A stretch of 64,000 nucleotides of DNA, taken from Obrimoposthia wandeli. Taxonomy: Eukaryota. Below the pieces are notes generated by a model, which saw only the letters and a list, made by a program, of their open reading frames with translations, was not told the DNA's origin and did not search any database. The translations under genes were made by a program, and so were the position numbers. The stretch spans positions 1 to 64,000 of the forward strand of contig CDROCS010000192.1 of NCBI GenBank assembly GCA_977020255.1, in the 5' to 3' direction. This document shows positions 16,066-64,000 of the stretch, piece by piece. Position 1 is the stretch's first letter. Each line of letters begins with the position of its first letter.

Positions 16066-16157
16066 CTAAAATTTGATTATCAATTAATAAAGTAGAAAAG
16101 GACTATCTATAAATTTTTGATAAAACTAAACAAAATAAATCAAATTAAGAAAACTGT

Positions 16158-17292
16158 TTAAATTCTGAAGTGTCCATAAGCCAGTCTAACGTTCTTTTCT
16201 ACCTAAATGCGCTTTTCGTCATTACTACTTAACACTATTTTTGTTGACTTATGGGAATACAGTTGATGGGCTCTTGAAATAAATCTAGTTTGCTCAACGC
16301 TTTTACAGCACCCAGTATCTTAAACTTTCCGGTAGGCCTCATGTGTAAGATTGTTTCTTCCCACACCCTTTGCTCTCATTGAACATGTATTATTATATGC
16401 ATGTAATCTGTAGCATTTAGGGCGTAGGAAATTAGGACGTAGAAAAAAATCACCTAACCTACGCTTTCACCCTTAAATTTCCCGATAATATCCTTTAAAC
16501 TCATAGACTGTAGAGGATGATTAACGGGATATTTATAAGTATAAAGTAAGTTATTCTTAAACATTGCCCATAATAATTGATTTTGAAAACTAACATTCCT
16601 ACATTCTAAAAAGAATTAGTCAGTGTCCCCAGCTGCGATTTTGATCTCACAATTGAATTTGTTGTGATATTTCTCTAAATCAATATATTGAAGCTCATAC
16701 ATTCTGAGTTTGGAAATGTCTACAATCGTTTGACCTATATAATTCGGTCGACTGAGACAAATACTCTATTTTCCTGATAATACTGCTACTAAGTCATCTG
16801 CAATTGTAAAACTACGCCTGAAGTTGCACTTGCTAGAATATGTTATTAGTTTACGCTCATCATTGCAAAACTATAGACAAATACGTTTCTGCAAGTCCTC
16901 TATAGTTTTACCTAAGATACTATTACTTTTAACTTGTAAAAATCCTGATCAATTTTGCTAGTGGCAAATTAAGTTTTCTCAAAATTTTCACAATATCATT
17001 TTTAAACACTACGTTTTGACTAAAGTTTATAGCCGATAAATTCAATTTAATTTCGCTCTCAACTCTAAGTAAAATTGAAGAAGTCGCCAATGCACCACAT
17101 AATTCAACTTGTCGTCATGAGTTTACAATAATTTCTTAACCTTTGAATTAGGTGAACATTGATAAACAGGCGCCACTAAACGATCGTCTAATTTATCGTG
17201 TACATTAGAAAGGATTTTTAAATCGACCTCAACTAAGTAGCCGACATTTGACGAAACTGTATCAACTGTAGCCAATTATATCATAAACTTAT
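16158..17292 (-). pseudogene. polB: Protein-primed family B DNA polymerase, C-terminal fragment
   Basis: Colinear nucleotide similarity to 61454-62590, e.g. tgggaatacagttgatgggctcttgaaataaatctagtttgctcaacgc is identical. Disrupted by indels. Confidence 0.92.
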
Positions 17293-17431
17293 TCTGCTGG
17301 TGCTTCTGTTCCTTCTTCTTGGTTCACCACCGTCGACATTATTGTAGAAGGGCATTCTATTAATTTTTGATTTATGAAAAATAATGAATATGTCTTTTTA
17401 TATACACAAACATCAGACTAACCCTCTTTCA

Positions 17432-39444: not shown

Positions 39445-40270
39445 TCAGCTAAATTCGCAGCACCATGATAAATTGTGATGACTAAAAACCAAAAATGAAC
39501 AAAGAAAAAATTTCAATTACAATAACAACTAACAGTCGTCCCATTCCATGCGTCTTGTAGACGTGCGTTGAATGGAGCTTTTGTTTAGGGATTTTAGCGA
39601 AATTAAATATTTGTTAGAAAATTTAACAAATTGTCAGAAATCAGTCGTTAAATTATTTTGAAAATAAACAAAAAGATCCCGCCTTAATAATTTTTAGTGA
39701 TTCTTTTTAATTATAATAAATTTATAGTATGTATAATTTTTTTAATTCATTAAAAAAAGCCATCTAAACTATATGTTACATTTGGTTAACAAATAATGAA
39801 AACGATGTAAATTATCGGTCACACAGTGCATGAAACCTTTTTTTTCCCACGACATGTGCAATGCCTATTGATTTGGCAGTTGGCATGAAACATGGTTCTT
39901 TTGACGGGATAAACAACTCATGTCTTTCTATTTTGTAATTGAAAGTCCTGTACCCGCATTTGATGAACTTTTCGATAGTCATTGAGAAACAAACCACATT
40001 TTTGTATATTTAAAAAAGTTATGAAAGCAATTATTAATTTAAGTAAAGATGTCATAAGAAGAAAATGAATTCAAAGTGTAAAGATATATCAAGAGCTGAT
40101 CAAAGATTTTCAGATATGAAGATTATGAAGATACATTATTTAATCAAGAAACAAAATATCTAAATAATTATAGATTATAAGAGATAAAGGTAATAAATTA
40201 GATTTGCAAAGCCAAATGCATTTAATTGAGTAGGTGGATGTGTCCGGTCTAATCCACACCCCCTCCCCCA

Positions 40271-40369
40271 CCTGTCCTTTAAAACCGTGCATGTGTGTGG
40301 AGTGAAATTTCGTGTAGGTGTGTGGAGTGAAATTTCACTCCACACACATGCACGGTTTTAAAGGACAGG
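40271..40369. repeat. Perfect 41-bp inverted repeat in the Polinton terminus
   Basis: 40271-40311 is the exact reverse complement of 40329-40369, with a 17-nt spacer. Confidence 0.92.
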
Positions 40370-40528
40370 GAGGGGGGGTCACAAATTTTTTTTAGCGCCC
40401 ATTGGCGCGAAAGGCTCGGGACTGGTGTATATCACAGACTTCCTTGGGTAATGGGTGTATGTCGGTGGGTGTTGGGTGAAAGTCGGTGGGCGTTGGGCGT
40501 TGGGCTGGAGGTGGTTCACCACCAACAC

Positions 40529-40596
40529 TACACCACACCACACCACACCACACCACACCACACCACACCACACCACACCACACCACACCACACCAC
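40529..40596. repeat. (CACCA)n pentamer array
   Basis: About 13 copies here; about 5 in the inverted copy at ~50222-50250. Confidence 0.9.
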
Positions 40597-41190
40597 AAAC
40601 AACACCACCTACCGAAACACTCCACCCACCACCCGTCCCTTCGGGGCGGGCTCCATTCTCGCGAAAATAACTACAAAAACATGCGCTACAGTATTTTTCT
40701 TTAACTTTACCTCTCACAACTACACATCAAGACGATCCGTGTTACAATCCAGCCCCTAATATACACAGTATACCGCCCGCCCTACGGGGGGCTTCATTCT
40801 TGATCTTCAGGCACGAAAAATATTACAAAAAATAAATTATTTGAATAAGACGCAATTTTTTTGCGCCAAATTTAAAATTTTCAAAATTGCTTTTAAACAA
40901 AAAATAAAATATTAAAATTTAAAAAAAATATTACAATTTCCAAAAAATTTTAACAGAAAATAAAATTGTTTACAAAATTTTTATAGTTTAAAAATAAAAT
41001 TTTACACATAATTTTTTACAACAATTTTTATAGTTTAAAAATATAATTTTACACAGAACTTTTATACTTTAGAATTAAAATTTTAAACTTAGAAAAAGAC
41101 AAAGACGAATTGGATACAAATATTTATTAAACCAAAGAGAAAATTTAGGTACAATAAATTTGTGACATAAATTCAAACATACAAAAACAA

Positions 41191-41631
41191 TTATTCAAGT
41201 GAAAAAACATCTGAATATCTGTGATGTCCGTAGACAACTGACCGGTTTTTCTCTACCCATTTTCTCTTATCGTCATTGCTACTCAATGCGATCTTACTCA
41301 TATTTACGGTATAGAGCTGGTGATTAATTGAACTAATGCGTTGTTGTTGCACTCGTTCACTAACCCCACTCTCATATGCAGCTAAATAATTCGCATGGCG
41401 TAGCACAGTCTGCCTAAGGCTAATTCCCTTTGCTTTTTTCTGGGACTTTCCGTCTATAGTTTCTAAGCTATATGATTTGGGGCGTAAAATTACCCATTGC
41501 TTATATCTACATTGCTTACTCTCATCCTTAAATTTGCCTATCGCAGTATTGGCTAAAGGATGGTTTATAGAAAATTTTGATGTGTCTAATAACCCATCTG
41601 AAATCATTGCTGACAACAGTGTAGCTTGCAC
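41191..41631 (-). pseudogene. polB: Polinton PolB C-terminal fragment (diverged lineage)
   Basis: IGKFKDE...LRPKSYS...KAKGI...KIALSSNDDKR.WVEKN...YGH matches the C-terminus of 61454-62662. Confidence 0.9.
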
Positions 41632-42999: not shown

Positions 43000-44040
43000 A
43001 AAATAATGGATAGAGTTTTAGAAGAGAAACTCACGATTTGTTCAAAAGGTTCTCTAGAAGAGTAATTAATACATAGAAGATTAAAGATAATAAAATAAGT
43101 AGCGGTTCAGAGGAGAAATTAACGATACTTTTAGGAGGTATCAAAAGAAAAAAATATAGCTTAGATTGGATTATGAAGTGAAATTGATGTGATTTATTTA
43201 AGAGATTTAGGAATGGAATTTAACGGGATGTTTAGAAGTTCAAAGAAAAAAATTACAAAGTATTTAGGAAGTTTATAAAATAATTTATTACATAGAAGAG
43301 TTCAAAGAGGAAATTTACGAGGTATTTAGAAGGTTATAGAATGGTTATAAAAGACAAATTGAAAAAGTGTTCAAGAGGTTTCAGAAGAAATATTATAGAT
43401 TTGAAGGGTTTAGAAGGGATTTAGCAGGAATGTTTAGGAGGTATCAGAAAATATAGCCTTAAAAAGCGTTTAGAGAAGTATTTAAAAGGAGTATTTAGGA
43501 AGTTTCAGAAAAAATAAATAAAAACCTAAAATTGATTCATAGGGGAAATTAAAGCCTAAAGGGTTCAAAGGGGGATTTAACTGAGGATTTCAAGAAGAAA
43601 TAAGACGGATTTAGAGGGAGATTTAAAGGGATATTTAGATGGTTCAGATGAGAAATTAAAGCCTAAAGGGTTCAAAAGAGAATTTAACGGATATTTCAAG
43701 AGGTTTCAGAAGATGAAATATAACCTAAATTGGTTCAGAGGAGAATATGTATAGGGAGGTTTCAGAAGAAGAAATTAGATGAATTTAGAGGGAAATTTAA
43801 CGATGATGTTTAGATGGTTCAGAAGAAAGATTAAAGTTTTGAAGGGTTTAGAATGGATTTAGCAGGAATGTTTAGGAGGTTTTGGTAAAGAAAATATAGC
43901 CTAGATAGCTAGATTAAATGAAAATAAAAGCGATGTTTATAAGATTAGTAGGATTCAGAAGAAAAAATATAGGATATATTTGACTTTGAAAGGAAATTTA
44001 ATGTGAGTTAGAAGATATTTAGGTGGTTTAGAAGGGAAAT
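43000..44040. repeat. Degenerate purine-rich ~60-bp tandem repeat
   Basis: Recurring ggttcagagg.gaaatttaac.g.atgtttag.aggtttcagaag motifs; an inverted copy lies at ~48975-49577. Confidence 0.65.
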
Positions 44041-45566
44041 AAGACTACTGTTCTAAAACTATAGTGAAATCGTATTTTATCAAAATTCCGGTCATTTCAC
44101 TTAAGATTATGATATAAGCGATCATATTGAATTTCAGCTTTATAGTGCTTCAAAGCGAGTTATACCAAAAATTAATTATAATATAAGTATTTTACTCATA
44201 TTTCGGTCATAACAAAGACAATTTTTACAAAAGCAGAGATATTATTCAAACTTTTACCATCTTCTTGTAAATGTTTCGCATATATTTTGGAAAATGATAA
44301 TCCACAATAGTGTTAGAATTAGAATATTAGAATTAGAGTATTAGCAGTTAGAGGTTTAGGTTAGATATTGAGTAATAACGATTAGTGTGCATATTTTCAA
44401 TTATTGATTTTATAGTTGAAAATAATCAATGATGTTGTAAATAGCTGCTTATAAGTCAATAGGTATTAAGGGAAACTTAAAGAAACAACTTCTGAGTATT
44501 GATAAAGTCATCATATATTTATAAAAAATCGGGTGAAATCTTTATGATCACTATTAATAGTTTTGGTTCATATAAATGGATTCTATCTTCATTGGACATT
44601 AAAAAATACTTTAAATCAATTAATAATAAGACATTGAATGAGAATTATTCAAATTAACGATTTCATTAATACATAGTAAATAAGTTATTTTCAAAGAGAG
44701 TTTTATCGAAGTCATCAATATTATCGTTCCAAAGCCAATATTTAAGCATTTCATCTATTCCTTCTACATTCCTTCAATTAAAATCAAAGCTAGGTATTCT
44801 ATTTTTTAAAGATAATGTTTGAAGTATTTTATCGAAATTTAAATGCAATAATGGAGAAAAGTGTTAAAGAATTGACATTAGGATGAAAGTGATAATCTAG
44901 AATTGATTGATATATGTGAGGAAATTTATGAATTATACCTGGTTTGTTTGACATATTGAACATATATAATCAACCTCTTGTTTGAAATAATTATGAGTAG
45001 ACATTATAATGAAATATGGTCAAAACGTTGACTGTTTATATACAACTAAAATCTGATTGGATAATGGTAGAAACATGATAAATACAATTGATGTATGATA
45101 ATGATTAGAATGACGTATTTGATTAAGCAAAGTTGTATTAAGCGCTGCAATACTGCGTTTAGCTTTAACAAGATTCCATGCAGAATTATTCTTTAAGTCT
45201 ATATTAAAAATATTAGTATTAAGATAGTGTTTATTAGACAAAGTTACTTAAAATATTTTATTACAATATATCCACCAACAAACAATAAAAAAAACTCTTC
45301 TCCCAGAAAAAGCTCCTCTTCTTTTCTTTCATCTCTTCTTTCATCTTATTATAGCCCAAAATGAGAAGATTGACTGCCTTATTGTGAATTATTCTTTGTA
45401 CATGCTCCTCCAGAGGTAGATCCGTTGCTTAGATGAGTATCAGAACATTTTCTTCTACAAGATTTTTCGAGATGAAACTCTTCACCGCCCGAACAACATC
45501 TTGCTTGAAATAATTTGCGAGTAGACATGATAATGAAGTAGGAGTTAAAAGTAAACTGTTTATATA

Positions 45567-46162
45567 CTATACAACTGAAATCTGATTAGATGATAGGAAA
45601 ATCATAAGAAATACAATTTTTGTATGATAATGATTAAAAATACGTATTTGATTAAGCAAAGTTGCATTAGGTGAAGCAATACTACGTTTAGCTTTAACAA
45701 GATTCCAGACAGTTTTAACACTCATTGAAAGAGATAAAAATGCAATCACAATACAAACAGCATGTAAACCTCCATAATGACCACATACTAGAACTTTCCC
45801 TCCATTTTTGATGGTTTCTTTAATTATATTATTAGTCTGTTTATAATATTGTAATATTGTTTCTCCTAATTTCGTATTTATATATATTGATTTTTACTTT
45901 AATTCCTTATAAGATATCTTATCCACTGGAGATGTATTGATTACATATGTGAATTTCGATTTTAGAAGCTCAGTTTCATCAAACCAGTCACGATAATTTC
46001 CAATATATAATTGATTTACTAAAATCTCGCTCATTGGGGTTTTGTTTAATTTTTCAGAGCATTTAAGAAATCCAATCGCTTATTTTCTTCTTTATCAGTA
46101 TCTTCAATAATTTCTTCATTTTTCTCTGCTGCTGCTGATGATGGTTCACCGAGTTTCTCCAT
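45567..46162 (-). pseudogene. Dual-specificity-phosphatase-like gene with altered active site; 3' half duplicated at ~44971-45225
   Basis: PMSEILVNQLYIGNY...YVINTS, then KNGGKVLVCGHYGGLHAVCIVIAFL..MSVKTVWNLVKAKRSIASPN..LLNQI, following the DSP pattern. Frameshifts lie between the blocks. Confidence 0.75.
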
Positions 46163-46284
46163 TTTACTGACAAATTTAAAGCTATAAGAGTATTGTTTAT
46201 AATTCAGAAAACAAGGGGAAATCTATTTTTAGTAACATTACAACTTTTTGCAACTTTGCATCTTTTTGCAAGTAATGTCTTTGT

Positions 46285-46787
46285 TTATGAAAAAAGACAA
46301 GTATGAAGATGTATATTAAATAAAATACATTCAATAAGATATTCATATTCTAGGGTCTTAACCCCAAGTATCATCACCTTCTCGCTTGCAAAATGTTCAT
46401 GCATAGAGGGTTGTATTTGATATATCATAGCCCCAGAAAATTTTCTGGTTCGTAAACTGCTTCCAATCCCATACTCTTACTCATCTTGCTCAGGTTTATT
46501 GGTTTTTCCAAATTAGTACTGACACTGATTGATTGAATTTTCTCGATTTTGATTTTGAACGGAAGAGTGCTTTCATCTAGCGCAGCTTTAGACCCCATGA
46601 TTCGACATGTTCCTAAATTATATTAAAACTTAAATGTAAAATAAATTACCAGATTTGAAAATTATAATAGTATAATTATCACACTTGTGTCGGTACTGAT
46701 GTGGCTTCGAAATGGTAAGTGTTGAATATTGCTTACAACCATTCCCTTGTAATTATTATTCACAAATTTGATATTATGAAGTAACAT
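46285..46787 (-). pseudogene. TBP-like gene, diverged paralog, intron 46613-46649 (37 nt)
   Basis: IKFVNNNYKG...LPF..KPHQY...DNYTIIIFKSG|TCRIMGSK...IQSISVSTNLEKPINL...YEPENF.GL.YIKYNPLCMNIF..KVMILGVK. Two frameshifts and one stop. Confidence 0.85.
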
Positions 46788-46883
46788 TTCTGATTATTAT
46801 AAACTAATTCTAATATATTATTTGAAAATCTATTTTTAGATTACAAATTATCTCTATAAACAATATTCCGATATTGATTTTTA

Positions 46884-47078
46884 TTGAAAATGGATAATCA
46901 AGATAGAGCAAGCACATATATTGGTTCTGGTAGTAATTTATATGCTAATATGGATTATAATAGAAATAATAATAGAGAAAGTATTAATCCAGTAATTGAA
47001 ACAATAACAAGACCTACGCGCGTAACCGAAGAACGTGAGCCCTTCAAGGATATGACTAATACGAAGCGATTTACATAA
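46884..47078 (+). other. Short ORF divergent from the TBP-like pseudogene, unknown
   Basis: 64-codon ORF of natural composition; no family recognised. Confidence 0.2.
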
Positions 47079-47214
47079 ACAACATTATCAATCAATTGGA
47101 ATCGGACTTCAAAGGATAAACAATTGAATAATATCACTAAATAACTTTTCTCGAAGAATTCTCCTCTGTAAACACTTTGTTAAATTCCATCTCTGAACAT
47201 GTATAAATCAATAC

Positions 47215-47216
<2 letters not shown>

Positions 47217-47264
<48 letters not shown>
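47217..47264. repeat. (TA)n microsatellite
   Basis: Pure TA run. Confidence 0.95.
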
Positions 47265-47267
<3 letters not shown>

Positions 47268-50200
47268 CTACATATTTTAAAATGTATATTTAAAAATGTA
47301 TTGATTATTTTAATTAATTGCGATAATGAAGATGAATAATGAAAGATTGTGATAATGAAGGATGAAGATGAGTGATTGCTTTGATGAGAAGAAGGATTGT
47401 GATAATGAAGATGGATCGAAGTAATGAAGATTATGATATTGTGAAGAGATGATGGTGTAACAATGTATGTATCTTTAATAAAAATTATTCTTTGCTATCT
47501 CTATTTACTTGTTTAACTCATAGGTTTAAAAATGTGTAATAAATAGCTTAAGATTACAAAAACGTTTTCTACTCACAAATAAAAGTAGATTCAATTATAC
47601 AAAATAAGTCATCACTTCTCACTACTTCTACAAGTTGTGCTTTATTTATGGCTTGTTGAAAATATTTTACTTCTAGTAGTGCTGGGTGATTTTTGATTTT
47701 ATCGTTTAGTCCATATAGAAACTGATGTAGTAGTAAGCGTTCTCTTAAATATTATATAAAATCATAAATGATTATCTGATCATGATATTGACGTAATATA
47801 AGTTTCTTGAGAAAATAACCAATATGGTTCACTTTATTTTCTTAAAGCTCTTAAATAGATCGTAATTTTTATACTTATTATTACTTCACACTTAACCTCA
47901 ATGGTGATTTAATTGAAGTATTTAATGACTGTGTACAACTTGATGAGTAGAAGAAAAATATCAAAAACTTAAATATGACTTACTATATTGAAATAATAGT
48001 AAAATATTGATAATTTAAGTACAACTTTCAATAATCACCATATGTTCAATATGTCAAACAAACCAGGTATAATTCATAAATTTCCTCACATATATCAATC
48101 AATTCTAGATTATCACTTTCATCCTAATGTCAATTCTTTAACACTTTTCTCCATTATTGCATTTAAATTTCGATAAAATACTTCAAACATTATCTTTAAA
48201 AAATAGAATACCTAGCTTTGATTTTAATTGAAGGAATGTAGAAGGAATAGATGAAATGCTTAAATATTGGCTTTGGAACGATAATATTGATGACTTCGAT
48301 AAAACTCTCTTTGAAAATAACTTATTTACTATGTATTAATGAAATCGTTAATTTGAATAATTCTCATTCAATTTCTTATTATTAATTGATTTAAAGTATT
48401 TTTTTAATGTCTAATGAAGATAGAATCCATTTATATGAACCAAAACTATTAATAGTAATCATAAAGATTTCACCCGATTTTTTATAAATATATGATGACT
48501 TTATCAATACTCAGAAGTTGTTTCTTTAAGTTTCCCTTAATACCTATTGACTTATAAGCAGCTATTTACAACATCATTGATTATTTTCAACTATAAAATC
48601 AATAATTGGGAATATGCACACTAATCGTTATTACTCAATATCTAACCTAAACCTCTAACTGCTAATACTCTAATTCTAATATTCTAATTCTAACACTATT
48701 GTGGATTATCATTTTCCAAAATATATGCGAAACATTTACAAAAAGATGGTAAAAGTTAGAATAATATCTCTGCTTTTGTAAAAATTGTCTTCGTTATGAC
48801 CGAAATATGAGTAAAATACTTATATTATGATTAATTTTTGGTATAACTCGCTTTGAAGCACTATAAAGCTGAAATTCAATATGATCGCTTATATCATAAT
48901 CTTAAATGAAATGACCGGAATTTTGATAAAATACGATTTCACTATATTTTATAGAACAGTAGTCTTATTTCCCTTCTAAACCACCTAAATATCTTCTAAC
49001 TCACATTAAATTTCCTTTCAAAGTCAAATATATCCTATATTTTTTCTTCTATATCCTACTAACCTTATATACATCGCTTTTATTTTCATTCAATCTAGCT
49101 ATCTAGGCTATATTTTCTTTACCAAAACCTCCTAAACATTCCTGCTAAATCCATTCTAAACCCTTCAAAGCTTTAATCTTTCTTCTGAACCATTTAAACA
49201 TCATCGTTAAATTTCCCTCTAAATTCATCTAATTTCTACTTCTGAAACCTCCCTATACATATTCTCCTCTGAACCAATTTAAGTTATATTTCATCTTCTG
49301 AAACCTCTTGAAATATCCGTTAAATCCTCCTTTAATTTCCTTTAATCTCCTTTAAGGTTATATTTTCTCTTCTGAAATCTCTTGAACTCCTCGGTTAAAT
49401 TCTCCTTTGAACCCTTTAGGCTTTAGTTTCTCATCTGAACCATCTAAATATCCCTTTAAATCTCCCTCTAAATCCGTCTTATTTCTTCTTGAAATCCTCA
49501 GTTAAATCCTCCTTTGAACCCTTTAGGCTTTAATTTCCCCTATGAACCAATTTTAGGTTTTTATTTCTTTTTTCTGAGTAGCAATGACGATAAGAGAAAA
49601 TGGGTAGAGAAAAACCGGTCTGTTGTCTACGGACATCACAGATATTCAGATGTTTTTTCACTTGAATAATTGTTTTTGTATGTTTGAATTTATGTCACAA
49701 ATTTATTGTACCTAATTTTTCTCTTTGGTTTAATAAATATTTGTATCCAATTCGTCTTTGTCTTTTTCTAAGTTTAAAATTTTAATTCTAAAGTATAAAA
49801 GTTCTGTGTAAAATTTTATTTTTAAACTATAAAAATTTTGTAAACAATTTTATTTTCTGTTAAAATTTTTTGGAAATTGTAATATTTTTTTTTAAATTTT
49901 AATATTTTATTTTTTGTTTAAAAGCAATTTTGAAAATTTTAAATTTGGCGCAAAAAAATTGCGTCTTATTCAAATAATTTATTTTTTGTAATGTTTTTCG
50001 TCCCTGAAGATCAAGAATGAAGCCCACCCCGTAGGGCGGGTGGTATACTGTGTATATTAGGGGCCGGATTGTAACACCAGTCGTCTACATGTGTAGTTGT
50101 GAGAGGTAAAGTTAAAGAAAAATACTGTAGCGCATGTTTTTGTAGTTATTTTCGCGAGAATAGAGCCCGCCCTGAAGGGACGGGTGGTGGGCGGAGGGTT

Positions 50201-50276
50201 TAGGTGGGTGGTGTTGTTTGTGTTGTGGTGTGGTGTGGTGTGGTGTGGTGTAGTGTTGGTGGTGTACCACTTCCGG

Positions 50277-51927: not shown

Positions 51928-52120
51928 AGTAGGTGGTTGTGTCCGGTCTAATCCACACCCCCTCCCCCCTTGTCCTTTAAAACCGTGCATGTGTGTGGAG
52001 TGAAATTTCGTGCATGTGTGTCTCCACCCAAATGCCCCCCTGTCCTTTAAAACCGTGTATGTGTGTGGAGTCAAATTTCGTGCATGTGTGTGGAGTCAAA
52101 TTTCATGTATGTCTCCATTC
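51928..52120 (+). repeat. Polinton terminal sequence with direct subterminal repeats
   Basis: Unit gtcctttaaaaccgtg.atgtgtgtggagt.aaatttcgtgcatgtgtg occurs twice plus a partial third copy. Confidence 0.85.
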
Positions 52121-52405
52121 CACCCAAAGAGTGAAGGAAGGGGGTACCCCCCCACCACAATTTAAAAAAAAATTTACTACGAATTTCAAAAGTGGTTATA
52201 GAATACCACGGGAATCCATATTGGCTCATGCGGCTTATCGCAGACGAGATTTTAAATAATATGTTACTACTATTTTTAAGAAACATTTTAGATTAATAAA
52301 TTACTACATGTTAAATATCTATTTATAGGATAAAAAATCGGTCAGATCTATAATTTAGAGGAGAAAAAACAAAATACGAGTCAAAATTATTTTTCAAAAT
52401 ATTTA

Positions 52406-52948: not shown

Positions 52949-53431
52949 TTAAAACATAGAAATATGAGCACGTTCAATTTTCCACATAGGCAACTTTGTC
53001 CCCATTTCATCTTTCTTGTAACCATAAAGTCGAATTGTTACAGTCCATTGCTTCTTTTTTGGAAATGCATCAATATCAACATATCTTCCATAGTCATCTA
53101 GAAATGCTTCATCGGGTCCTCGGATATAAAATTCGTTCTTATTAAAAGTAAAATTCGGAACTGCCTTTTCAACTTTCTGTTTAAGATATTGAAAATCTGG
53201 TTTTTGAATATTTGATAGATAGTAGCTGAACTTTCTTCTTTCAATTGTCACAGGATTTACTAAAGCAATCAGTTGAGCCTTCTTCAAGAATCTGACTTTG
53301 TATTTGAAATATTGTTTCACTTCTTCATACATATCCTTATCCGATTCTTCAAACATTTCTATATCTTCCTCATCGCTTAATACCCGTTGGCTATCATCCA
53401 TCGTTGATAATTGTCTTTGATATGAATGCAT
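52949..53431 (-). CDS. Polinton accessory protein, putative OB-fold ssDNA-binding protein (paralog 2) with acidic N-terminus
   Basis: Intact ORF; FLDDYG...WTVTIRLYGY...PMWKIERA versus FKDDLG...WNISIRLNGY...PLWTLSEA in paralog 1. Confidence 0.5.
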   Translation of the reverse strand: MHSYQRQLSTMDDSQRVLSDEEDIEMFEESDKDMYEEVKQYFKYKVRFLKKAQLIALVNPVTIERRKFSYYLSNIQKPDFQYLKQKVEKAVPNFTFNKNEFYIRGPDEAFLDDYGRYVDIDAFPKKKQWTVTIRLYGYKKDEMGTKLPMWKIERAHISMF

Positions 53432-53565: not shown

Positions 53566-53680
53566 AAGAAATATATCATCCACTTATTATAGGTTTGCAA
53601 GATAATTACAAGAAACGTGCAATAAAAAAGCAGTTTCAGACATTTATAAAGAAGATTTTATAGAATACAATTTTAGTCTA

Positions 53681-54177
53681 ATGAAACTCGTAAATATAAA
53701 TTATAAAGCTAGAACAGAAGATGATGTTTCGTACTAACCATTCAATGAATGGAAGCCGAGACAATATGTGGAAAGGTTTGACAATTTTACAGTTGTTATT
53801 TTTCCTACAGGTTAGTTTTTTTATTTTCATATTGAATTCTTTTAGGAAATTGTCGTGTTATGGGATGCAAAATACCAATGCTTGTGTTCAATTTACCATT
53901 TGGAATTCGAATCACTGCAATACAATCAATCACGATTTCAGCTAATCTTGGGAAACAGATAAATCTTTTAAAAACTGCAGAGAAAATGAAAGAAGAATGC
54001 ATGTTTGAACCAGAAATTTTTCCTGCTCTCAGTTATTTGAAGTTTAAACCGCTATGTGTAAATATATTTTCCAGTGGTAAAGTTATGATATTGGGATTGA
54101 AAAATATTGATTATCCAGACATTGTTGATTTGATTTTAGAAAATATATATTATTACATCTTGTTATCTTTTCTATAA
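53681..54177 (+). pseudogene. TBP-like gene copy 1 (exons 53681-53810, 53846-54177), nonsense TAA at codon 19
   Basis: TTA in copy 2 is TAA at 53735-53737 here; 35-nt GT-AG intron at 53811-53845. Confidence 0.88.
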
Positions 54178-54206
54178 ACAAACCCGTTTAAACTTATTGT
54201 TTGAAA

Positions 54207-54460
54207 TGAATAATACTATAAATAGAGACAATGAAGTGTCTTGCCGACGAAATATTTTCTGGAAAAATTAGGGGTAAAGAAATTTTATCAGAATTAAAAT
54301 ATAATGATATAACAAGAGATAACATTGAAATATTGGTTAGATCACACGTTATCGAGAATTTAGAAATCGAACACAAATAAATAAAATTATAGCCAAATAT
54401 TCATTAATTAATTTTTGTATTTCATCTACAATAGCTCTAACATTGTACATTTCAATAAGG
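54207..54460 (+). pseudogene. Frameshifted copy of the unknown ORF at 55603-55869
   Basis: 4-nt deletion (gaagtgtctt versus gaagtggagcgtctt) plus a further indel. Confidence 0.7.
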
Positions 54461-54509
54461 AAACTTCTATGATAATATACACAATATTAAAAATGAAAGA
54501 GTATATGCA

Positions 54510-55034
54510 ATGGAGCTAAATAATAATGCTGTATTTCAAATAGTTGGTCCCAGTGGAAGTGGAAAGACACATTTCGTATGTAAATTGTTGCAAAATGAAT
54601 CTCTTTTCAAATCAAGTTTCAAAAATATTTATTGGCATCATGGTGGAGGAGGGGAAAGCGGATTAACCAAAACAGAAGTTTGCAAGTTGAAGAGAATACA
54701 ATTTATTGAAGGGTTTGATGCAAATTGGTGTGAAAGATTGAAAAAAGAAGATGTAATAATAATTGATGATTTGTATCAGGAAACTAACAAGGAATCAGAC
54801 TTTAATAATTTATTTACAAAGATTGCAAGACATCGTGAAGTAACAGTTATATTTATCACTCAAAATCCTTTTCACCAAGGAGGTCACCATAGAACTAGAA
54901 ATTTTAATGTACATTACTTAGTTTTATTTAAAAATCCTAGAGATCAAACAGTTGTTGATTTCGTGGCCAGACAGGCATTTCCCCAAAATAAGAACTTTCT
55001 AGATAATTACAAGAAACGTGCAATAAAAAAGTAG
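54510..55034 (+). pseudogene. Packaging ATPase (A32/FtsK-like) copy 1, C-terminally truncated by the duplication junction
   Basis: Walker A GPSGSGKT, Walker B IIIDD, ITQN and LFKNPRD; diverges after QNKNFL at 55001. Confidence 0.88.
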
Positions 55035-55081
55035 GTTCAGACATATATAAAGAAGATTTTACAGAATACAATTTCAGTCTA

Positions 55082-55583
55082 ATGAAACTCGTAAATATAA
55101 ATTATAAAGGTAGAACAGAAGATGATGTTTCGTACTTACCATTCAATGAATGGAAGCCGAGACAATATGTAGAAAAGTTTGACAATTTCACAGTTGTTAT
55201 TTTTCCTACAGGTTAGTTTTTTTATTTTATTTTCATATTGAATTCTTTTAGGAAATTGTCGTGTTATGGGATGCAAAATACCAATGCTTGGGTTCAATTT
55301 ACCATTTGGAATTCAAATCACTGCAACACAATCAATCACAATTTCAGTTAATCTTGGGAAACAGATAAATCTTTTAAAAACTGCAGAGAAAATGAAAGAA
55401 GAATGCATGTTTGAACCAGACATTTTTCCTGCTCTCAGTTATTTGAAGTTTAAACCGCTATGTGTAAATATATTTTCCAGTGGTAAAGTTAGGATATTGG
55501 GATTGAAAAATTTTGATTATCCAGACATTGTTGATTTGATTTTAGAAAATATATCTTATTACATCTTGTTATCTTTTCTATAA
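55082..55583 (+). CDS. Minimal TATA-binding-protein-like protein, 153 aa (exons 55082-55211, 55252-55583)
   Basis: Two TBP-type repeats: TVVIFPTG|NCRVMGCK (TBP TALIFSSGKMVCTGAK) and FEPDIFPALSYLKFKPLCVNIFSSGKVRILGLK (TBP [34 protein letters not shown]). A 40-nt GT-AG intron contains an in-frame TAG. Confidence 0.88.
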
Positions 55584-55602
55584 ACAAACCCGTTTAAACT
55601 TA

Positions 55603-55869
55603 TTGTTTGAAATGAATAATACTATAAATAGAGACAATGAAGTGGAGCGTCTTGCCGACGAAATATTTTCTGGAAAAATTAGGGGTAAAGAAATTTTATC
55701 AGAATTAAAAAATAATGATATAACAAGAGATAACATTGAAATATTGGTTAGATCACACGTTATTCGAGAATTTAGAAATCGAACACAAATAAATAAAATT
55801 ATAGCCAAATATTCATTAATTAATTTTTGTATTTCATCTACAATAGATCTAACATGTACATTTCAATAA
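55603..55869 (+). CDS. Unknown ~85-aa Polinton protein
   Basis: Intact ORF between the TBP-like gene and the ATPase; no family recognised. Confidence 0.5.
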   Translation: MFEMNNTINRDNEVERLADEIFSGKIRGKEILSELKNNDITRDNIEILVRSHVIREFRNRTQINKIIAKYSLINFCISSTIDLTCTFQ

Positions 55870-55920: not shown

Positions 55921-56556
55921 ATGGAGCTAAATAATAATGCTGTATTTCAAATAGTTGGTCCCAGTGGAAGTGGAAAGACACATTTTGTATGTAAATTGTT
56001 GCAAAATGAATCTCTTTTCAAATCTAGTTTCAAAAATATTTATTGGCATCATGGTGGAGGAGGTGAAAGCGGATTAACCAAAACAGAAGTTTGCAAGTTG
56101 AAGGGAATACAATTTATTGAAGGATTTGATGCAAATTGGTGTGAAAGATTGAAAAAAGAAGATGTAATAATAATTGATGATTTGTATCAGGAACCTAACA
56201 AGGAATCAGACTTTAATAATTTATTTACGAAGATTGCAAGACATCGTGAAGTAACAGTTATATTTATCACTCAAAATCTTTTTCACCATAAAACTAGAAA
56301 TCTTAATGTGCATTACTTAGTTTTATTTAAAAATCCTAGAGATCAAACAGTTGTTGATTTCGTGGCCAGACAGGCATTTCCCCAAAATAAGAACTTTTTA
56401 GTTGATTCATTCCACGATGCTGCTAAACAAGCACATGGGTATATATTTATTGACTTTACACAAGCTTGTCCAGATGATTTATGTGTTTTAACCGACATAT
56501 TTAATTCTAAGGGAGTAACTGTTTATAAACAAATAGAGAACAATCATAAAAGATAA
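55921..56556 (+). CDS. Packaging ATPase (A32/FtsK-like) copy 2, full length with a 4-aa deletion
   Basis: Walker A and B and the C-terminal GYIFIDFTQ are present. 12 nt are lost between cacca repeats (FHQGGHHRTRN becomes FHHKTRN). Confidence 0.92.
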   Translation: MELNNNAVFQIVGPSGSGKTHFVCKLLQNESLFKSSFKNIYWHHGGGGESGLTKTEVCKLKGIQFIEGFDANWCERLKKEDVIIIDDLYQEPNKESDFNNLFTKIARHREVTVIFITQNLFHHKTRNLNVHYLVLFKNPRDQTVVDFVARQAFPQNKNFLVDSFHDAAKQAHGYIFIDFTQACPDDLCVLTDIFNSKGVTVYKQIENNHKR

Positions 56557-56685: not shown

Positions 56686-57057
56686 ATGGCTTCGAATATA
56701 AACAATATTTAAATTGAACCTTTTTTATTAAAGAAAATACAAAGAAGCATACCCTATTTTAAAGCTTTGGTCAAAGCCTCTTCTCATAAGAGAATGATTA
56801 TTCTTAAAGCATTTCCATCTTTTGTTGTAAATGATTTATTGGAAGTTTTGTATAATATAGTTTTGGGTCGAGTAAAAGTTGGAAATCGGAAAAATATATT
56901 AAAGAAATATAGAAAAACTCTTCTAGATATTGCTAATGTAAAAAGTAAAAAAAGGAAACGAAATATTATTCTTAAACATAATGGTGGTTTCATAGGGGCT
57001 GTTATTCCAGTCGTTGCTTCAATTATCAGTAGTATTATAGCTGCGACACGTTCATAA
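56686..57057 (+). CDS. Basic Polinton virion-type protein with C-terminal GGF-hydrophobic helix
   Basis: K/R-rich body ending KHNGGFIGAVIPVVASIISSII, typical of the small gene next to Polinton integrase. An in-frame TAA at ~56710 follows the upstream ATG. Confidence 0.6.
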
Positions 57058-57085: not shown

Positions 57086-58171
57086 ATGGGTGCTAAACCT
57101 TTTTACCTAAATTTAAATAATCTTTCTATTCAAATTGTTGTAATGGAGAAGATATGGTTCAATCCAAAAGATCCAATTGGCTACACAGGAGTTTCAAAAT
57201 TAGCAAAAAGAACAAAACAAAAATACAAGAAAACGCAGAAATGGCTGAGCAACCAGTTAGCCTACAGTCTGAACAAACCGATGAGAAGAAGGTTTCCAAC
57301 TAGAGCTTACAAAACCAGCGGTCCTAATAATTTATGGCAAATGGATTTGATGGAGATGATCCCATATTCTTCCATTAATAAGGGATATCGATATATTTTA
57401 ACATGTATTGATGTATTTAGCAGGTTTGCTCGTGCAATTCCAGTTAAAGCAAAGTCTTCAATAGCTATGCTTGAAGCCATTAAAGAAATATTAAAAGAGG
57501 ACATTCCACAAAATGTGCAAACTGATTTAGGAAAAGAACTTTATAATAAGCAAGTTCAATCATTATTTAAACAAAATAATATATATTACTACTCTGTGTT
57601 TTCACAGTATAAAGCAGCAGTAGTAGAAAGATTTAATCGTACTTTAAGAGATCGAATAAAAAAGTATTTCACAAAAGAAGGAAATAAAAAATGGATCCAA
57701 GTTTTACCTAAAATAATACATGCCTATAATCACTCGGAACATAGAGGTCTCATGGGAATGAGACCTGTTGATGTTACTAATAAAAATTCTATAGATATTT
57801 GGATGAACAGGAATAAAAAAGAAAATATTAAAAAAGCTAAATATAAGAAAAACAAATATGTCCGAATTTCGAAAATTAGCTCTACTTCATTTATTAAAAA
57901 CTTTGATCAGAATTGGAGCGATGAAATATTTTGTATAAGTAAAATTGATCAAAAGAGTAATCCAATAATGTATACTATTAAAGATGCTGACAATAATATC
58001 GTTCACGGTAAATTTTACGAGCAAGAACTACAAGTAATATCAAATAAACCTAGCGTTTTCCGTATTCAAAAAATATTAAAATCTAAGGGTGCCGGTCAAC
58101 ATAAACAATACTATGTTAAATGGCATGGTTATTCAGATCCAACTTGGATATCAGCATCTAATATAATATGA
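57086..58171 (+). CDS. Retroviral-like (rve) integrase with C-terminal chromodomain-like segment
   Basis: LWQMDL...YILTCIDVFSR...VQTDLGKE...VERFNRTL (DDE); C-terminus IQKILKSK...YYVKWHGY...TWI. Confidence 0.95.
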   Translation: MGAKPFYLNLNNLSIQIVVMEKIWFNPKDPIGYTGVSKLAKRTKQKYKKTQKWLSNQLAYSLNKPMRRRFPTRAYKTSGPNNLWQMDLMEMIPYSSINKGYRYILTCIDVFSRFARAIPVKAKSSIAMLEAIKEILKEDIPQNVQTDLGKELYNKQVQSLFKQNNIYYYSVFSQYKAAVVERFNRTLRDRIKKYFTKEGNKKWIQVLPKIIHAYNHSEHRGLMGMRPVDVTNKNSIDIWMNRNKKENIKKAKYKKNKYVRISKISSTSFIKNFDQNWSDEIFCISKIDQKSNPIMYTIKDADNNIVHGKFYEQELQVISNKPSVFRIQKILKSKGAGQHKQYYVKWHGYSDPTWISASNII

Positions 58172-59234: not shown

Positions 59235-59589
59235 AGCTTATAGTCAAAGCCAACAAGGTGGAGAATTACCATATTTTGTTGGTAAACAATACGGATCTGG
59301 CTGGCTTAGAACATTAGGTAGATTTGCCTTTCCTCTTTTAAAGAGATTCGGGCGATTTATATCAAAATTAATAAAGGACTACCTTTCATCTAAGGACAAT
59401 AAACTAATACCAACTTTTAAGAAGCATGCGCTTGATGAACTTGATAATGTTTTACCTGAAGTTGCTAATTTGATTAGAAAACGTAAATCAAATAAAAGCC
59501 AAGGAAGTAGTGGATTTAAAAGTAAAAAGAAGCAAAAAATCAATATAAACAAACGTAAGAAAGTTGAAGAAACAATATTTGCAAAATGA
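59212..59589 (+). CDS. Small Polinton virion protein with QxGxG motifs and an amphipathic basic helix (membrane-lytic type)
   Basis: YSQSQQGG.LPYFVGKQYGSGWLRTLGRFAFPLLKRFG. The function is inferred from analogy to adenain-processed proteins. Confidence 0.65.
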   Translation: MANPAIIEAYSQSQQGGELPYFVGKQYGSGWLRTLGRFAFPLLKRFGRFISKLIKDYLSSKDNKLIPTFKKHALDELDNVLPEVANLIRKRKSNKSQGSSGFKSKKKQKININKRKKVEETIFAK

Positions 59590-60815
59590 GTTGCGCCAAA
59601 ACTGAATTGTGTATTTTTGATAAACCGCTTCCACAAGTAGTTGTAGATAATGCTTCCTTCGAAGAAATATTTATAGTTAACTCAGTTCCAGGAACCACTT
59701 TAACCGATTTAGAATTTAATATTAATGGTTCCAATAGCGAGTATTTAGATTTGAATGATACTTTGCTTTATGTTCAAATAAAAGTATTAAATCGGGATAG
59801 TACTAATTTAGAGGAAAATGCAGATGTAACACCTGTAAATTATCTCTTTAATTCTTTATTTAGTGATGCCATTGTTACTCTTAATAATGTCAAAATTGAA
59901 GGTGGAAATTCTTCCTATGCTCATAAAGCTTTGATTGAAAGTCTTTTGAATTATAGTACTGATACTCAAAATACTAATTTGGCAACCATTGGTTATGATA
60001 AAACGGTCGCAACTCGCAAAGAATGGATTTCGGGTTCTAAAGCTTACGAAATGTGTGGGTCTTTGAGATTGAATTTCTTTGAACAACCGAAATATTTAAT
60101 TCCCGGTGTTAATGTACATCTTCGTTTGAAACGTAATAAATGGAATTTTTCTTTGATAAGCACAGACGTTCTAAAACGTAGACTTGATATTTTGGATGCA
60201 AAATTGTATGTCCGAAGAGTTAAAACCGAGCAATCAGTTTTAATGGCACATAATATAGGAATGGAAAAAAACAATGCTTATTATCCTATTAGAAAAACTA
60301 AACTTATATCCTACTCTTTAGGTACGGGTACACAAGCTTTTAATAAGGATCAAATTTTTGATTATGTAAGATTACCGAAATTCATTTTAATTTCTTTTCA
60401 AAAAACTGCAAAGTTTCTAGGAAATTATACGACAGATGCAACTCAATTTGACAATCTTAGTGTAGGTTCAGTGACACTTTCAAGAAATACTGATTATCGT
60501 GAAACATATAAAACAGATTTCGAAGGTAACGCTTATGCTTTGGCTTATACGCAATCTATTATTCGGAATTTGGGCCAACTAGATAAAAATATAAACAATG
60601 GTATTTCTTTCACTGAGTTTAAAAGCAGCTGCCCGTTCTTCACATTCGTTTTGGCACCAGACTTTGATATAAACCAATGCCAACTACCAAAGGATGGAAA
60701 TTTACGACTAGAAATTAAGTTCAATGCAGCTTTAACAATTCCTACTACGGTGCTTATTTACGGAGTGTTTGATTCCGAAATACAAATCAATAAAAACAGA
60801 ACTGTCATATTATAG
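59586..60815 (+). CDS. Major capsid protein (double jelly-roll, PY/hexon-like)
   Basis: CAKTELCIF..P.PQ, YLDLNDTLLY, NSLFS...V.LN, LIPGVN...RL.RN, LYVRRV, LRLEIKF; 409 aa intact. Confidence 0.92.
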   Translation: MSCAKTELCIFDKPLPQVVVDNASFEEIFIVNSVPGTTLTDLEFNINGSNSEYLDLNDTLLYVQIKVLNRDSTNLEENADVTPVNYLFNSLFSDAIVTLNNVKIEGGNSSYAHKALIESLLNYSTDTQNTNLATIGYDKTVATRKEWISGSKAYEMCGSLRLNFFEQPKYLIPGVNVHLRLKRNKWNFSLISTDVLKRRLDILDAKLYVRRVKTEQSVLMAHNIGMEKNNAYYPIRKTKLISYSLGTGTQAFNKDQIFDYVRLPKFILISFQKTAKFLGNYTTDATQFDNLSVGSVTLSRNTDYRETYKTDFEGNAYALAYTQSIIRNLGQLDKNINNGISFTEFKSSCPFFTFVLAPDFDINQCQLPKDGNLRLEIKFNAALTIPTTVLIYGVFDSEIQINKNRTVIL

Positions 60816-60816
60816 A

Positions 60817-61190
60817 ATGAAGTAAGACATTTTTTAAATTTATATTTATTAATTTTTATTTAGTTCAGTACAAGTACAAGAATCAGCAGAGAAGGTCTTG
60901 GGTGATAAATTCAATGGAGTTTATCCTATCGATATGATTCCATTTTTTCAATCTGGAGGTTACATTATCAATACTCATACTTCGAATTTACCGGGAGAAC
61001 ATTGATTTATGTTAGAGAGTGGACAATACATGTATTTGATACACTTGCAATGTATTATCCACACAAACTTGTTTCGACTATTCAAAAAGGACGAAGAAGA
61101 ATATATTTCAACAAGATACAATATCAGGATCCTGCGACGAAAAACTGTGGACATTTATGTATTTTATGGTTATCGTTGCAAAATGATTAG
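60817..61190 (+). pseudogene. Adenain-like cysteine protease with a 42-nt intron (60822-60863) and a frameshift after the catalytic His
   Basis: Spliced MN|SVQ...FNGVYPIDMIP...IINTHTSNLPGEH*; the other frame gives IYV...VFDTL...QYQDPATKNCGHLC. Confidence 0.85.
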
Positions 61191-61453: not shown

Positions 61454-64000
61454 TTAAATTCGGAAGTGTCCATAAGCCAGGCTAGCGTTCTTTTCTACCC
61501 AAAAGCGCTTGTCGTCATTACTACCCAAAGCGATTTTTGTTGATTTATGGGAATACAGTTGATGGGCTCTTGAAATAAATCTAGTTTGCTCAACGCTTTC
61601 AATACACCCAGTATCATAAACTTTCCGGTATGCCTCATGTGTAAGATTGTTTCTTCCCACACCCTTTGCTCTCATTGAACATGTATTATTAGATGCATGT
61701 AAACTGTAGCATTTAGGGCGTAGGAAAATACAATCATCATACGAAACCTGTCCCTCGCTTTCGTCCTTAAATTTCCCGATAATATCCTTTAAACTCATAG
61801 AGTGTAGAGGATGGTTAGCGGGATATTTATGGGTATCTAATATGTTGTCCCTAAACATTGCCGGTAATAATTGATTATTTAAACTAACATTCCTACATTC
61901 TAAAAAGAAAGAGTCAGTGTCCCCAGCTGCGATTTTAATCTCACAATTGAAATCTCGTCGATATTTCTCCAATTCTATGTATTGAAGCTCATACATTCTG
62001 AGTTTAGAAATGTCTAAAACCGTTTGACCTATATAACTCGGTCGATCGAGACAAATACTCTGTTTTCCTAATAACACTGCTACCAAGTCATCTTCAATTG
62101 TAAAACTACGCTTGAAGTTGTACTTGCTAGTATATGTTATTAGTTTACGCTCATCATTGCAAAACCGTAGACAAATACGTTTCCGCAAGTCCTCTACAGT
62201 TTTTCCAAAGAGGCTATTACTTTTTAACTTGTAAAAATCCCGATCGAATTTGCTAGTGGCCAAATTACGTTTTCTAGAATTCTTCTCAATATAGTCTTTA
62301 AACACAAAGTTTTGACTGAAGCTTATAGCACGATGAATTCGAGTAACTTTCGCTCCCAACTTTAAGTAGAATTGAAGAAGCCGCCAATGCACAACATAAT
62401 ACAACTTGTCTTCATGGGTTAACAATAATTTCTTAACCTTTGAATTAGGTGGGCATTGATGAACAGGCGCTACTGGAAGATCATCTAATTTATCATGCAC
62501 ATTGGGAGGGATTGTTAAGTCAACCTCAACCAAATAGCCGATATCTGATGAAACTGTATCGACAGTAGCCAAATCTGTCATCAACTTATTCAACTCTTCC
62601 TCATCATAAACCCACTTAAAGTTGGCATGAGGTAGAGGTTGAGTAAGCGCCCACCCATACAAATTATTAATATCGATCTACAGAATCTCCGTGGATTGAT
62701 TTTTGAAAACATGATGTTTGTTGATAAAAGTCATTCCACTGCGTATACCATAATCATATATTTGATACATCGCGGGATCTTGCAGTAACTCGATATTAAT
62801 TTTAAGAGTTTTTATTGCTGTTGCCCATGAAAGACCAGGTAAACTAAAGAAATGCATGGGATCTAGCCCATCTTCTGCTAAAGACTTTACACGAAAGGAC
62901 TCAAAAACATCAGCTAAAAGATAAATGTCTAATTTCATATAATAAAGCATATATTCGAGAAGATTTCGACAATTATTCACCCAAAATGTACGGGCCTCAT
63001 TATAGTCTTGAAGACTTACACCCTCAAATTCAGTTATGGGTGGGATTTCTGTAGTATTTTCTAAATCTGCAAAGGTTTTCGCAAATTTATACGGAAAAAT
63101 CCCCTTATCATTAACCGAAGCTGGGAACACTGACTGTGGCCATGCTTTTAAAGATGCTGTTAAATTTTTTAAAGACCCGCTCAAAAACTGCAGAGAATCT
63201 ACGAATCTTAAACTGCAGAATTCAGTATATGCAGTTAAAGATAAATATTTCTCTGAAGTTTGAGGTATACAAGAAATTTCCCAAGAGCTTAATGTACCCA
63301 ACGCATATTTAAGTATATGATGCAAATCATATCCTTTGAGGTTATGAAACACGATGGGAATTCGTGGTTTTTTAGGGAGACGACGGCCAAGGTTACAGAG
63401 GTTGCACGCCGCTCCCAAGTATCGCCCCGTAACATGATCGTGATCTCTGACTAACTTAGACTGGGTTCCACACAAATAACATAATCTACAAGTATTAAAA
63501 TTAACCTAGTCTATGCCTGTCATGATCATTGCTTGATGAGCATTAAGATCATACCCCGGTTTGACAATTGTAGTTCCTAATTCTTCTAATTTTAACATAA
63601 AATCTAAAATACAATTGGGACCGGAAAATTTATGATACTGTGTAATATTGGGGTCTAAGAATAGTAGTCCTACCGAAGCCGGTAGGTGAATACTCTCATA
63701 CTGGTCGTGCAATGCTAAAATTGACTCAAAATCTGCATACACCCTGAATTCCACGGGTATGCATTTTGGCCAATCCCTGAATTTTAAATCCTTATCCTTA
63801 GGCATGCTATATAGCGTATTATCATCAGGATTCAGTGAACATAATGTCAGATGTTTGCTGTAAGAGAGCTCGGATCGGAATCCATGCAAACATCTATGAC
63901 ACCACTTACACCTTATCCTAACCGATAAGGCTCCATTATCTAAATTTAGAAGACGATCTAAACTGGGAATAGCAGCATAATGGAATTTATTATTCTGTTC
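61454..64000 (-). pseudogene. polB: Protein-primed family B DNA polymerase (runs off window), two in-frame TAG stops
   Basis: RVYADFES, CYLC...VRDHDH.TG..LGAAC..CN, FHNLKGYDLH, YMKLD, IL*IDINNLYGWA, KLKSNSLFGK, GDTDS. Stops at 62678 and 63506 are in the same frame. Confidence 0.97.

Follow-up and report, generated by a model that had tools for sequence, protein, structure and literature searches.

Cellular and archaeal TATA-binding proteins (TBPs; PF00352; PDB 7egb_P, 7o4i_O and 1mp9) share a saddle fold built from two repeats. According to the available text of PMC7221094, a basic patch on the N-terminal lobe binds TFIIA, TAF1, Mot1 and Brf, and two glutamates of the C-terminal lobe bind TFIIB. 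The same text describes the TBP-like proteins of the Nucleocytoviricota as divergent and as having lost the eukaryotic regulatory patch of the N-lobe; most of these viruses supply a TFIIB of their own, and the stirrup residues of their TBPs have drifted, with the two glutamates about 40% conserved. In the available text of PMC1636458, it is the N-lobe of TBP that touches the 3' half of the TATA box, positions 194, 203 and 205 alter the specificity of TBP, and C was disfavoured in the 3' half of the box in a selection with mutant TBP. A further viral system is the TBP mimic of herpesviruses (KSHV ORF24, EBV BcRF1), a TBP fold with a polar DNA face that works with host Pol II at a TATA variant, the TATT late promoter, before structural genes (available portion of PMC12529657). 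The same portion describes ORF24 as a protein of 752 aa that has all four intercalating phenylalanines and binds Pol II directly, and terms its model incompatible with TFIIB binding. Herpesvirus TBPs also carry a Pol II-binding N-terminal domain and an extra C-terminal DNA-binding domain.

For elements with an adintovirus-like PolB, Starrett et al. 2021 placed a bare "TBP" label on the maps of MELD virus and adintoviruses (PMC8502044 Fig. 5; bioRxiv 10.1101/697771, as available). The figure legends and section 3.4 of that work contain no analysis of a TBP protein or its promoter, and one supplement contains neither "TBP" nor "TATA". The labelled gene and the family described here are likened by name, and they may not be the same family. 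The sequence-only reading of this locus had presented TBP as standing outside the canonical Polinton genes; with the label already in the available part of PMC8502044, the novelty is lower than it claimed. The available texts of 10.64898/2026.06.19.733378, PMC10748475, PMC12220804 and PMC8097293 held nothing relevant on TBP or TATA. The literature searched gave no account of this TBP family or of the motif described below, for which subscription papers, Repbase notes, figures or bioRxiv supplements may hold one, and no promoter study for animal Polintons. The present window contributes the intron, a control family that lacks TBP, and a map of the residues.

We analysed a stretch of 64,000 nt of Obrimoposthia wandeli DNA (the window), in which a TBP-like gene of 153 codons lies on the plus strand between an ATG at 55082 and the stop side at 55583. 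Exon 1 (55082..55211; 43 codons plus one base) encodes the strands of a reduced first repeat, and exon 2 (55252..55583) supplies the remainder of repeat 1, the whole of repeat 2 and the TFIIB stirrup. Between them lies a putative phase 1 GT-AG intron of 40 nt with an in-frame TAG (55212..55251). Exon 2 matched PF00352 with an E-value of 1.7e-10 and 41 bits, against a curated cut-off of 22.9, and TBP accounted for 35 of the 38 PDB sequences among the matches listed (best E 1.7e-11). Exon 1 searched by itself gave no TBP match in Pfam; P0001, a relative without the intron, has a start that is 43% identical to it (E 2e-10), and exon 2 aligned with P0001 at 50% identity. Full-length relatives matched PF00352 at 50–64 bits, in two stretches each. 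We consider the TBP-like gene of the Polinton to be confirmed.

The fold was judged on an AF2 model of P0001 (pLDDT 94) in place of the window protein. Both repeats of the model fitted TBP (VIA-align Z 13.2, with an rmsd of 2.6 across 149 residues), and the next unrelated fold reached Z 7.7. On this model, the element protein has the two-repeat TBP saddle fold. The strands of repeat 1 were kept, whereas H1 was reduced to 4 residues and there was no helix between strands 45–51 and 66–78, the place of the canonical basic N-lobe helix H2. Together with the Pfam match of exon 2 and the intronless relatives that span the junction, the model bore out the claim of a 153-aa two-repeat TBP-fold gene, and the lack of an N-terminal extension was likewise upheld. 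The first repeat had been put at about 15 aa shorter than that of cellular TBP; the actual difference is 24 residues (a span of 92 against 116–117, measured from N69 to the second stirrup in relatives, with the window gene counted by hand).

The residues of the family were counted in yeast numbering over 145 non-canonical relatives, with no motif filter; the counts come from matches to one query and therefore favour similar sequences. As in cellular and archaeal TBPs, N69 was kept together with the intercalating phenylalanines F116 (117/118), F190 (141/141) and F207 (137/137). The column of F99 was empty in 144 of 145 rows, which leaves three of the four canonical intercalating phenylalanines, with the location of this gap depending on the sequence alignment. 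The two TFIIB-binding glutamates of the large-virus TBP study, which we take to be E186 and E188, were retained in 133/141 and 137/141 rows, respectively; the window copy has E and D at the stirrup, with D at position 188. On the DNA face, the changes were V122 to R (117/119), T124 to M (134/135), V71 to N (90/105), N159 to S (126/141), I194 to R (115/140), V203 to C (113/138), L205 to N (137/137) and a near-fixed V161T. In contrast to cellular and archaeal TBPs, the family thus has polar or charged residues at positions 71, 122, 159, 161, 194 and 205. Overall, the protein is a member of the TBP family but lacks two features of canonical TBPs, the fourth phenylalanine and helix H2.

Compared with the viral systems, the element protein shares a polar DNA face with the herpesvirus mimic, and positions 122, 124 and 205 are changed in both. 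However, it consists of the TBP core only, it keeps the TFIIB stirrup, and its structural similarity to BcRF1 is weak (E 4e-3). By analogy, it may work like the herpesvirus TBP mimic without being a member of that group. Structure searches gave 27 viral matches at E-values up to 0.001, the named ones coming mostly from large DNA viruses. The element protein resembles the Nucleocytoviricota proteins in being virus-like in its setting, divergent and devoid of the N-lobe regulatory patch, but differs from them in keeping the stirrup, and no TFIIB-like gene was found in 10 long element stretches. Five longer relatives of 163–204 aa (P0082, P0125, P0128, P0129 and P0146) keep both repeat-1 helices along with the Arg/Met and Asn changes. 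These sequences suggest that the DNA-face changes preceded the loss of the helix. No relative turned up in the viral contigs scanned; this leaves the longer two-helix relatives without a genomic setting, and they may belong to something other than Polintons.

The gene is very likely spliced at 55212–55251, as judged from a comparison with the DNA of relatives, which bears out the proposal that a 40-nt GT-AG intron with an in-frame stop splits repeat 1. In intronless relatives, which align to both exons, the protein runs uninterrupted over the position of the junction; one such group, in the same genome, comprises 17 of the 30 loci of one set of copies. Among 30 close copies the intron was 38–40 nt long in 29 (38, 39 and 40 nt in 14, 9 and 6 copies), with GT at one end in 28/29 and AG at the other in 27/29. 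The upstream tandem TBP copy has an intron of 35 nt. A subfamily 47% identical carries inserts of 37–38 nt, of different sequence, at the identical base; both ends were canonical in one of four decayed copies, and one had GC-AG. A metagenome locus (L069) has a 40-nt GT-AG intron of different sequence at the same site. Exon 1 compared with intronless copies gave dN of 0.39–0.52 and dS of 1.7–2.0, indicating that it is conserved as protein. A frameshift in place of an intron was rejected, because the length varies while the ends are kept and because introns of other sequence occupy the same site. The intron is not a trait of the lineage and is absent from most relatives.

Short introns were also apparent in other genes of the lineage. 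In five lineages the presumed protease gene opens with ATGAA, then GT(A/G)AG, then an AT-rich tract closed by AG (window 60817–60870; L043:8478, L047:9190, L168:3921 and L170:1611), and it probably has a conserved short intron after codon 2, to judge by this pattern. Relatives of a 160-aa ORF (window 52949–53431) in L031, L034, L043, L048, L049 and L060 appear to contain short GT-AG introns. The presence of short introns in more than one gene of the lineage points to transcription by Pol II in the nucleus. Intact vertebrate Mavericks have been reported to be intronless (available text of PMC8097293), and the subject of PMC11957031, as far as its available text goes, is introners in dinoflagellate elements.

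The element surrounding the gene has the hallmarks of a Polinton/Maverick: a protein-primed PolB, an rve integrase and an A32-like packaging ATPase. It is decayed, with several genes broken. The TBP-like gene had been placed just upstream of the packaging ATPase (55921..56556, plus strand; Pfam Pox_A32 E 2.4e-6, over the cut-off); the order held but direct adjacency did not, as an ORF of 85 codons (55612..55869, plus strand), without a family over cut-off in Pfam and with nothing useful from PHROGs, intervenes. On the 3' side of the ATPase follow a broken core-protein-like ORF (56794–57057; weak Adeno_PX match), the integrase with a chromodomain (57086..58171, plus strand; Pfam rve E 3.9e-11), a presumed penton gene, so labelled from order and size, an ORF of 125 codons, and a 409-aa ORF (59586..60815, plus strand) that we presume, from its size and position, to be the major capsid protein. 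The 409-aa ORF had no match in Pfam or the PDB. Next comes a broken ORF (60817..61187, plus strand), presumably an adenain-like protease, to judge by a motif. The protein-primed DNA polymerase B (61454..64000) lies on the minus strand, is interrupted by stops and extends past the window; the same polymerase stretch in locus L099 matched Pfam DNA_pol_B_2 at E 6e-12.

The block of TBP, the 85-codon ORF and the ATPase is duplicated in tandem at 53600..55002 on the plus strand (blastn, 96% over 1414 nt), and the TBP copy in the duplicate (53681–54177) has a stop in exon 1. The left end of the element (51928..52400, plus strand) starts with AGTAGG and has a similar sequence, inverted, at contig position ~69330–69700. 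The ends at 51928 and contig ~69700 are similar, but the sequences on either side of them are not the same, and the right arm belongs to a second copy in inverted orientation. This copy (L099; G000:C192 ~64700–69700) is more decayed, carries a TBP 86% identical and is inverted against the 5' end of the polymerase; as a result, two partial elements share one pair of ends without matching flanks. The 160-aa ORF was weakly linked to the I3-like single-strand binding proteins of poxviruses (score 0.89, 12% of members), and ORF151 is a distant paralogue of it. Further decayed polymerase fragments and large inverted repeats were seen at window positions 16116–17294, 40226–41607 and 43505–50256, with another element end at 40226. 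The host genome is AT-rich and 1.35 Gb in size.

The word ATAAACA, mostly in the form TATAAACA, was shared by the upstream regions of element genes. It occurred within 70 nt before the ATPase in 11 of 13 lineages (0.28 expected) and before the presumed capsid gene in 9 of 10 (0.55 expected), mostly at 31–40 nt in both cases. Before TBP itself it was found in 0 of 30 rows and a canonical TATA pattern in 17 of them, two of the 30 rows being exon-2 ATGs rather than true starts. Over 310 non-redundant ORFs there were 79 sense against 13 antisense matches upstream, and 41 of the 79 started at −40 to −31. The window contained 26 matches against 10 expected. The motif preceded the 125-codon ORF in only 2 of 9 cases, and its distance from the ATG of a gene could reach 56 nt. 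Where it precedes the capsid gene it lies inside a coding frame and reads ATA AAC in 11 of 11 loci, codons with a use of 0.38 and 0.24; these loci are not fully independent because of shared descent.

In the window, a canonical TATA-like box, TATATAAAG, lies at 55044..55052 on the plus strand, 38 nt before the TBP start, and is likely read by host TBP. The word TATAAACA itself lies on the plus strand over the TBP stop codon (55579..55586), 33 nt before the 85-codon ORF; in the 3' end of the ATPase gene (56524..56531), 40 nt before the start of a short lysine-rich ORF; before the broken core-protein-like ORF (56697..56704); and inside the 125-codon ORF, read there as Ile-Asn (59544..59551), 42 nt before the presumed major capsid gene. 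The form CATAAACA stands on the plus strand 33 nt before the first ATG of the integrase. Upstream of the ATPase, this copy departs from the motif at one base; 18 of 22 sister copies match it. A short ORF with a Met-Gly start and a Cys-Cys pair overlaps the start of the integrase in another frame (window 57086 onward; L134:2796), and the motif before the integrase may serve this ORF rather than the integrase.

As a control we used another Polinton-like family of the same genome, in which no match to a TBP gene was found in the six copies examined. In 114 kb of TBP-bearing loci TATAAACA occurred 178 times against 19 for TATAAAAA, whereas in 107 kb of the TBP-less family the counts were 10 and 98, and ATAAACA preceded the ATPase at 0 of 19 starts. 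The control is a single decayed family with very A/T-rich upstream regions. This family (G000:C3352:56000–67800, L175–L214) differs in its PolB and ATPase and has runs of A/T in its upstream regions; no major capsid gene was recognised in it, and it may therefore use another transcription route. We infer the pairing of the element TBP with TATAAACA from their co-occurrence and fit; it may be that the two are simply inherited together.

The TBP gene marks a lineage of Polintons. A search of this genome yielded no fewer than 150 close copies with identities of 95% or above, and further subfamilies showed an unchanged gene order. Of 56 metagenome loci, 55 matched; a further element gene was present in 35 and a core gene in 22 of them, and in 19 and 15, respectively, of the 21 loci that measure at least 3 kb. 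One metagenome locus (L086; 71% GC, E 3e-4) was dropped as spurious. A protein library clustered at 50% held 98 relatives at E-values up to 1e-10. In an unrooted tree of 66 chosen rows, which identified no donor, 41 element-type rows fell on one side of a branch with an SH-aLRT of 95, and the host TBPs grouped with the canonical ones. The dN/dS ratio in 32 pairs was 0.08–0.60, mostly near 0.2, indicating purifying selection. A captured host TBP pseudogene was rejected, given this selection and the separate clade. The checks of linkage and phylogeny proposed with the sequence-only reading came out in its favour: in many elements the gene is linked to the ATPase, integrase and pPolB and stands apart from the host TBP genes, and the element rows have one side of the tree to themselves.

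In the host, two canonical TBP genes lie on opposite strands with about 1 kb between them, and there are further divergent TBP paralogues; the host's TBP and TFIIB loci (L087–L093, L215–L224) also include several TFIIB/Brf-like genes. One host TBP intron is about 48 nt, and the host TFIIB core appears to be split over exons. Some sister elements carry an additional gene between TBP and the ATPase, namely an IAP-like gene (L134:253–1149; BIR E 1.9e-13, with a RING match in the continued frame) or a dual-specificity phosphatase (L096:686–1099, minus strand; E 1.7e-12).

We propose, with a probability of about 0.6, that the element TBP serves late promoters, to which it would bring host TFIIB and Pol II, in the manner of herpesvirus ORF24. 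Since the packaging gene and the likely capsid gene stand behind a shared TATAAACA, the protein is likely the element's own switch for them, acting through host Pol II. The TBP gene would be made early, from its canonical TATA box by host TBP. The remodelled N-terminal lobe would read the 3' half of the box, which is the site of the unusual C, so that the element TBP would bind TATAAACA before the packaging, core and presumed capsid genes and would prefer it to TATAAAAG or scrambled DNA. The intact C-terminal stirrup would dock host TFIIB and thereby bring RNA polymerase II, and the loss of the basic helix H2 would free the protein from control by host TFIIA, TAF1 and Mot1. The outcome would be an early-to-late switch, where "late" is taken from the type of gene.

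Several other explanations were weighed against this proposal. The forkhead consensus is RYAAAYA. ATAAACA fits it, the host has at least two canonical TBPs and further divergent paralogues, and wild-type TBP can bind a box containing C, having been crystallised on a C(-25) TATA variant (PDB 1qn3, as far as the available entry goes); the last two points also count against the late-promoter reading. A host factor, be it a TBP paralogue or a forkhead protein, might thus read TATAAACA while the element TBP does another job. We consider this unlikely: GTAAACA, a common forkhead word, preceded 0 of 62 rows tested, the antisense motif preceded 0 of 23 ATPase and capsid rows, the use of a single strand at a fixed distance fits a core promoter element, and the TBP-less family lives in the same host without the motif. 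It is quite unlikely, too, that another element protein reads the motif and that TBP is a mere TFIIB adaptor in a larger element-coded complex, comparable to a herpesvirus activator. KSHV ORF24 does need partners for stable promoter binding (available portion of PMC12529657), and relatives of the 160-aa ORF occur in 20 of 55 TBP loci; however, the lead for that ORF points weakly to I3-like proteins, and the DNA-facing residues of TBP are near-invariant in their altered form, which fits direct reading of bases.

The sequence-only reading had suggested that the protein may reprogramme or decoy host Pol II initiation. Reprogramming fits, although our results point to the genes of the element itself as what is targeted, by way of a private promoter word. 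A decoy is less well supported, given how strongly the DNA-facing surface has been conserved in its altered form. As a decoy or inhibitor, the protein would sequester host TFIIB or block host TATA promoters and so damp host genes, and the retention of the TFIIB-binding glutamates alongside the loss of one phenylalanine and of the TFIIA-binding helix is consistent with this, as are the host-modulating genes (IAP, phosphatase) of some sister elements. Such a role leaves unexplained the matching promoter word, and also why three phenylalanines and the newly polar residues of the DNA face are conserved; it could accompany the work of a late-promoter TBP as a side effect, and as the main function it appears improbable. 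Finally, the motif often overlaps a TAA stop codon or the 3' end of a gene, as might be expected if it had nothing to do with TBP and served to terminate or polyadenylate the transcript of the gene upstream. We rejected this as highly improbable, because the position of the motif follows the downstream ATG (29–52 nt) and not the preceding stop (−103 to +45), and because none of the 7 PolB 3' ends has the motif within 150 nt; AATAAA lies within 200 nt of five of these ends.

The late-promoter reading also leads to a broader proposal, for which we see roughly even odds: that this Polinton lineage runs its own early-to-late switch by means of a TBP of about 150 aa that has shed the host control surface, rebuilt its N-lobe for TATAAACA and docks host TFIIB directly, as a minimal private TBP-promoter pair that evolved apart from the herpesvirus one. 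With a named factor and a named promoter word, the timing of capsid and packaging gene expression in Polintons becomes testable. The element protein is in addition a natural dissection of TBP, in which the TFIIB surface was kept, the regulatory helix was dropped and the specificity residues were altered. If the proposal is true, a private TBP-promoter pair would indicate that elements long classed as transposons follow a timed programme for making virions.
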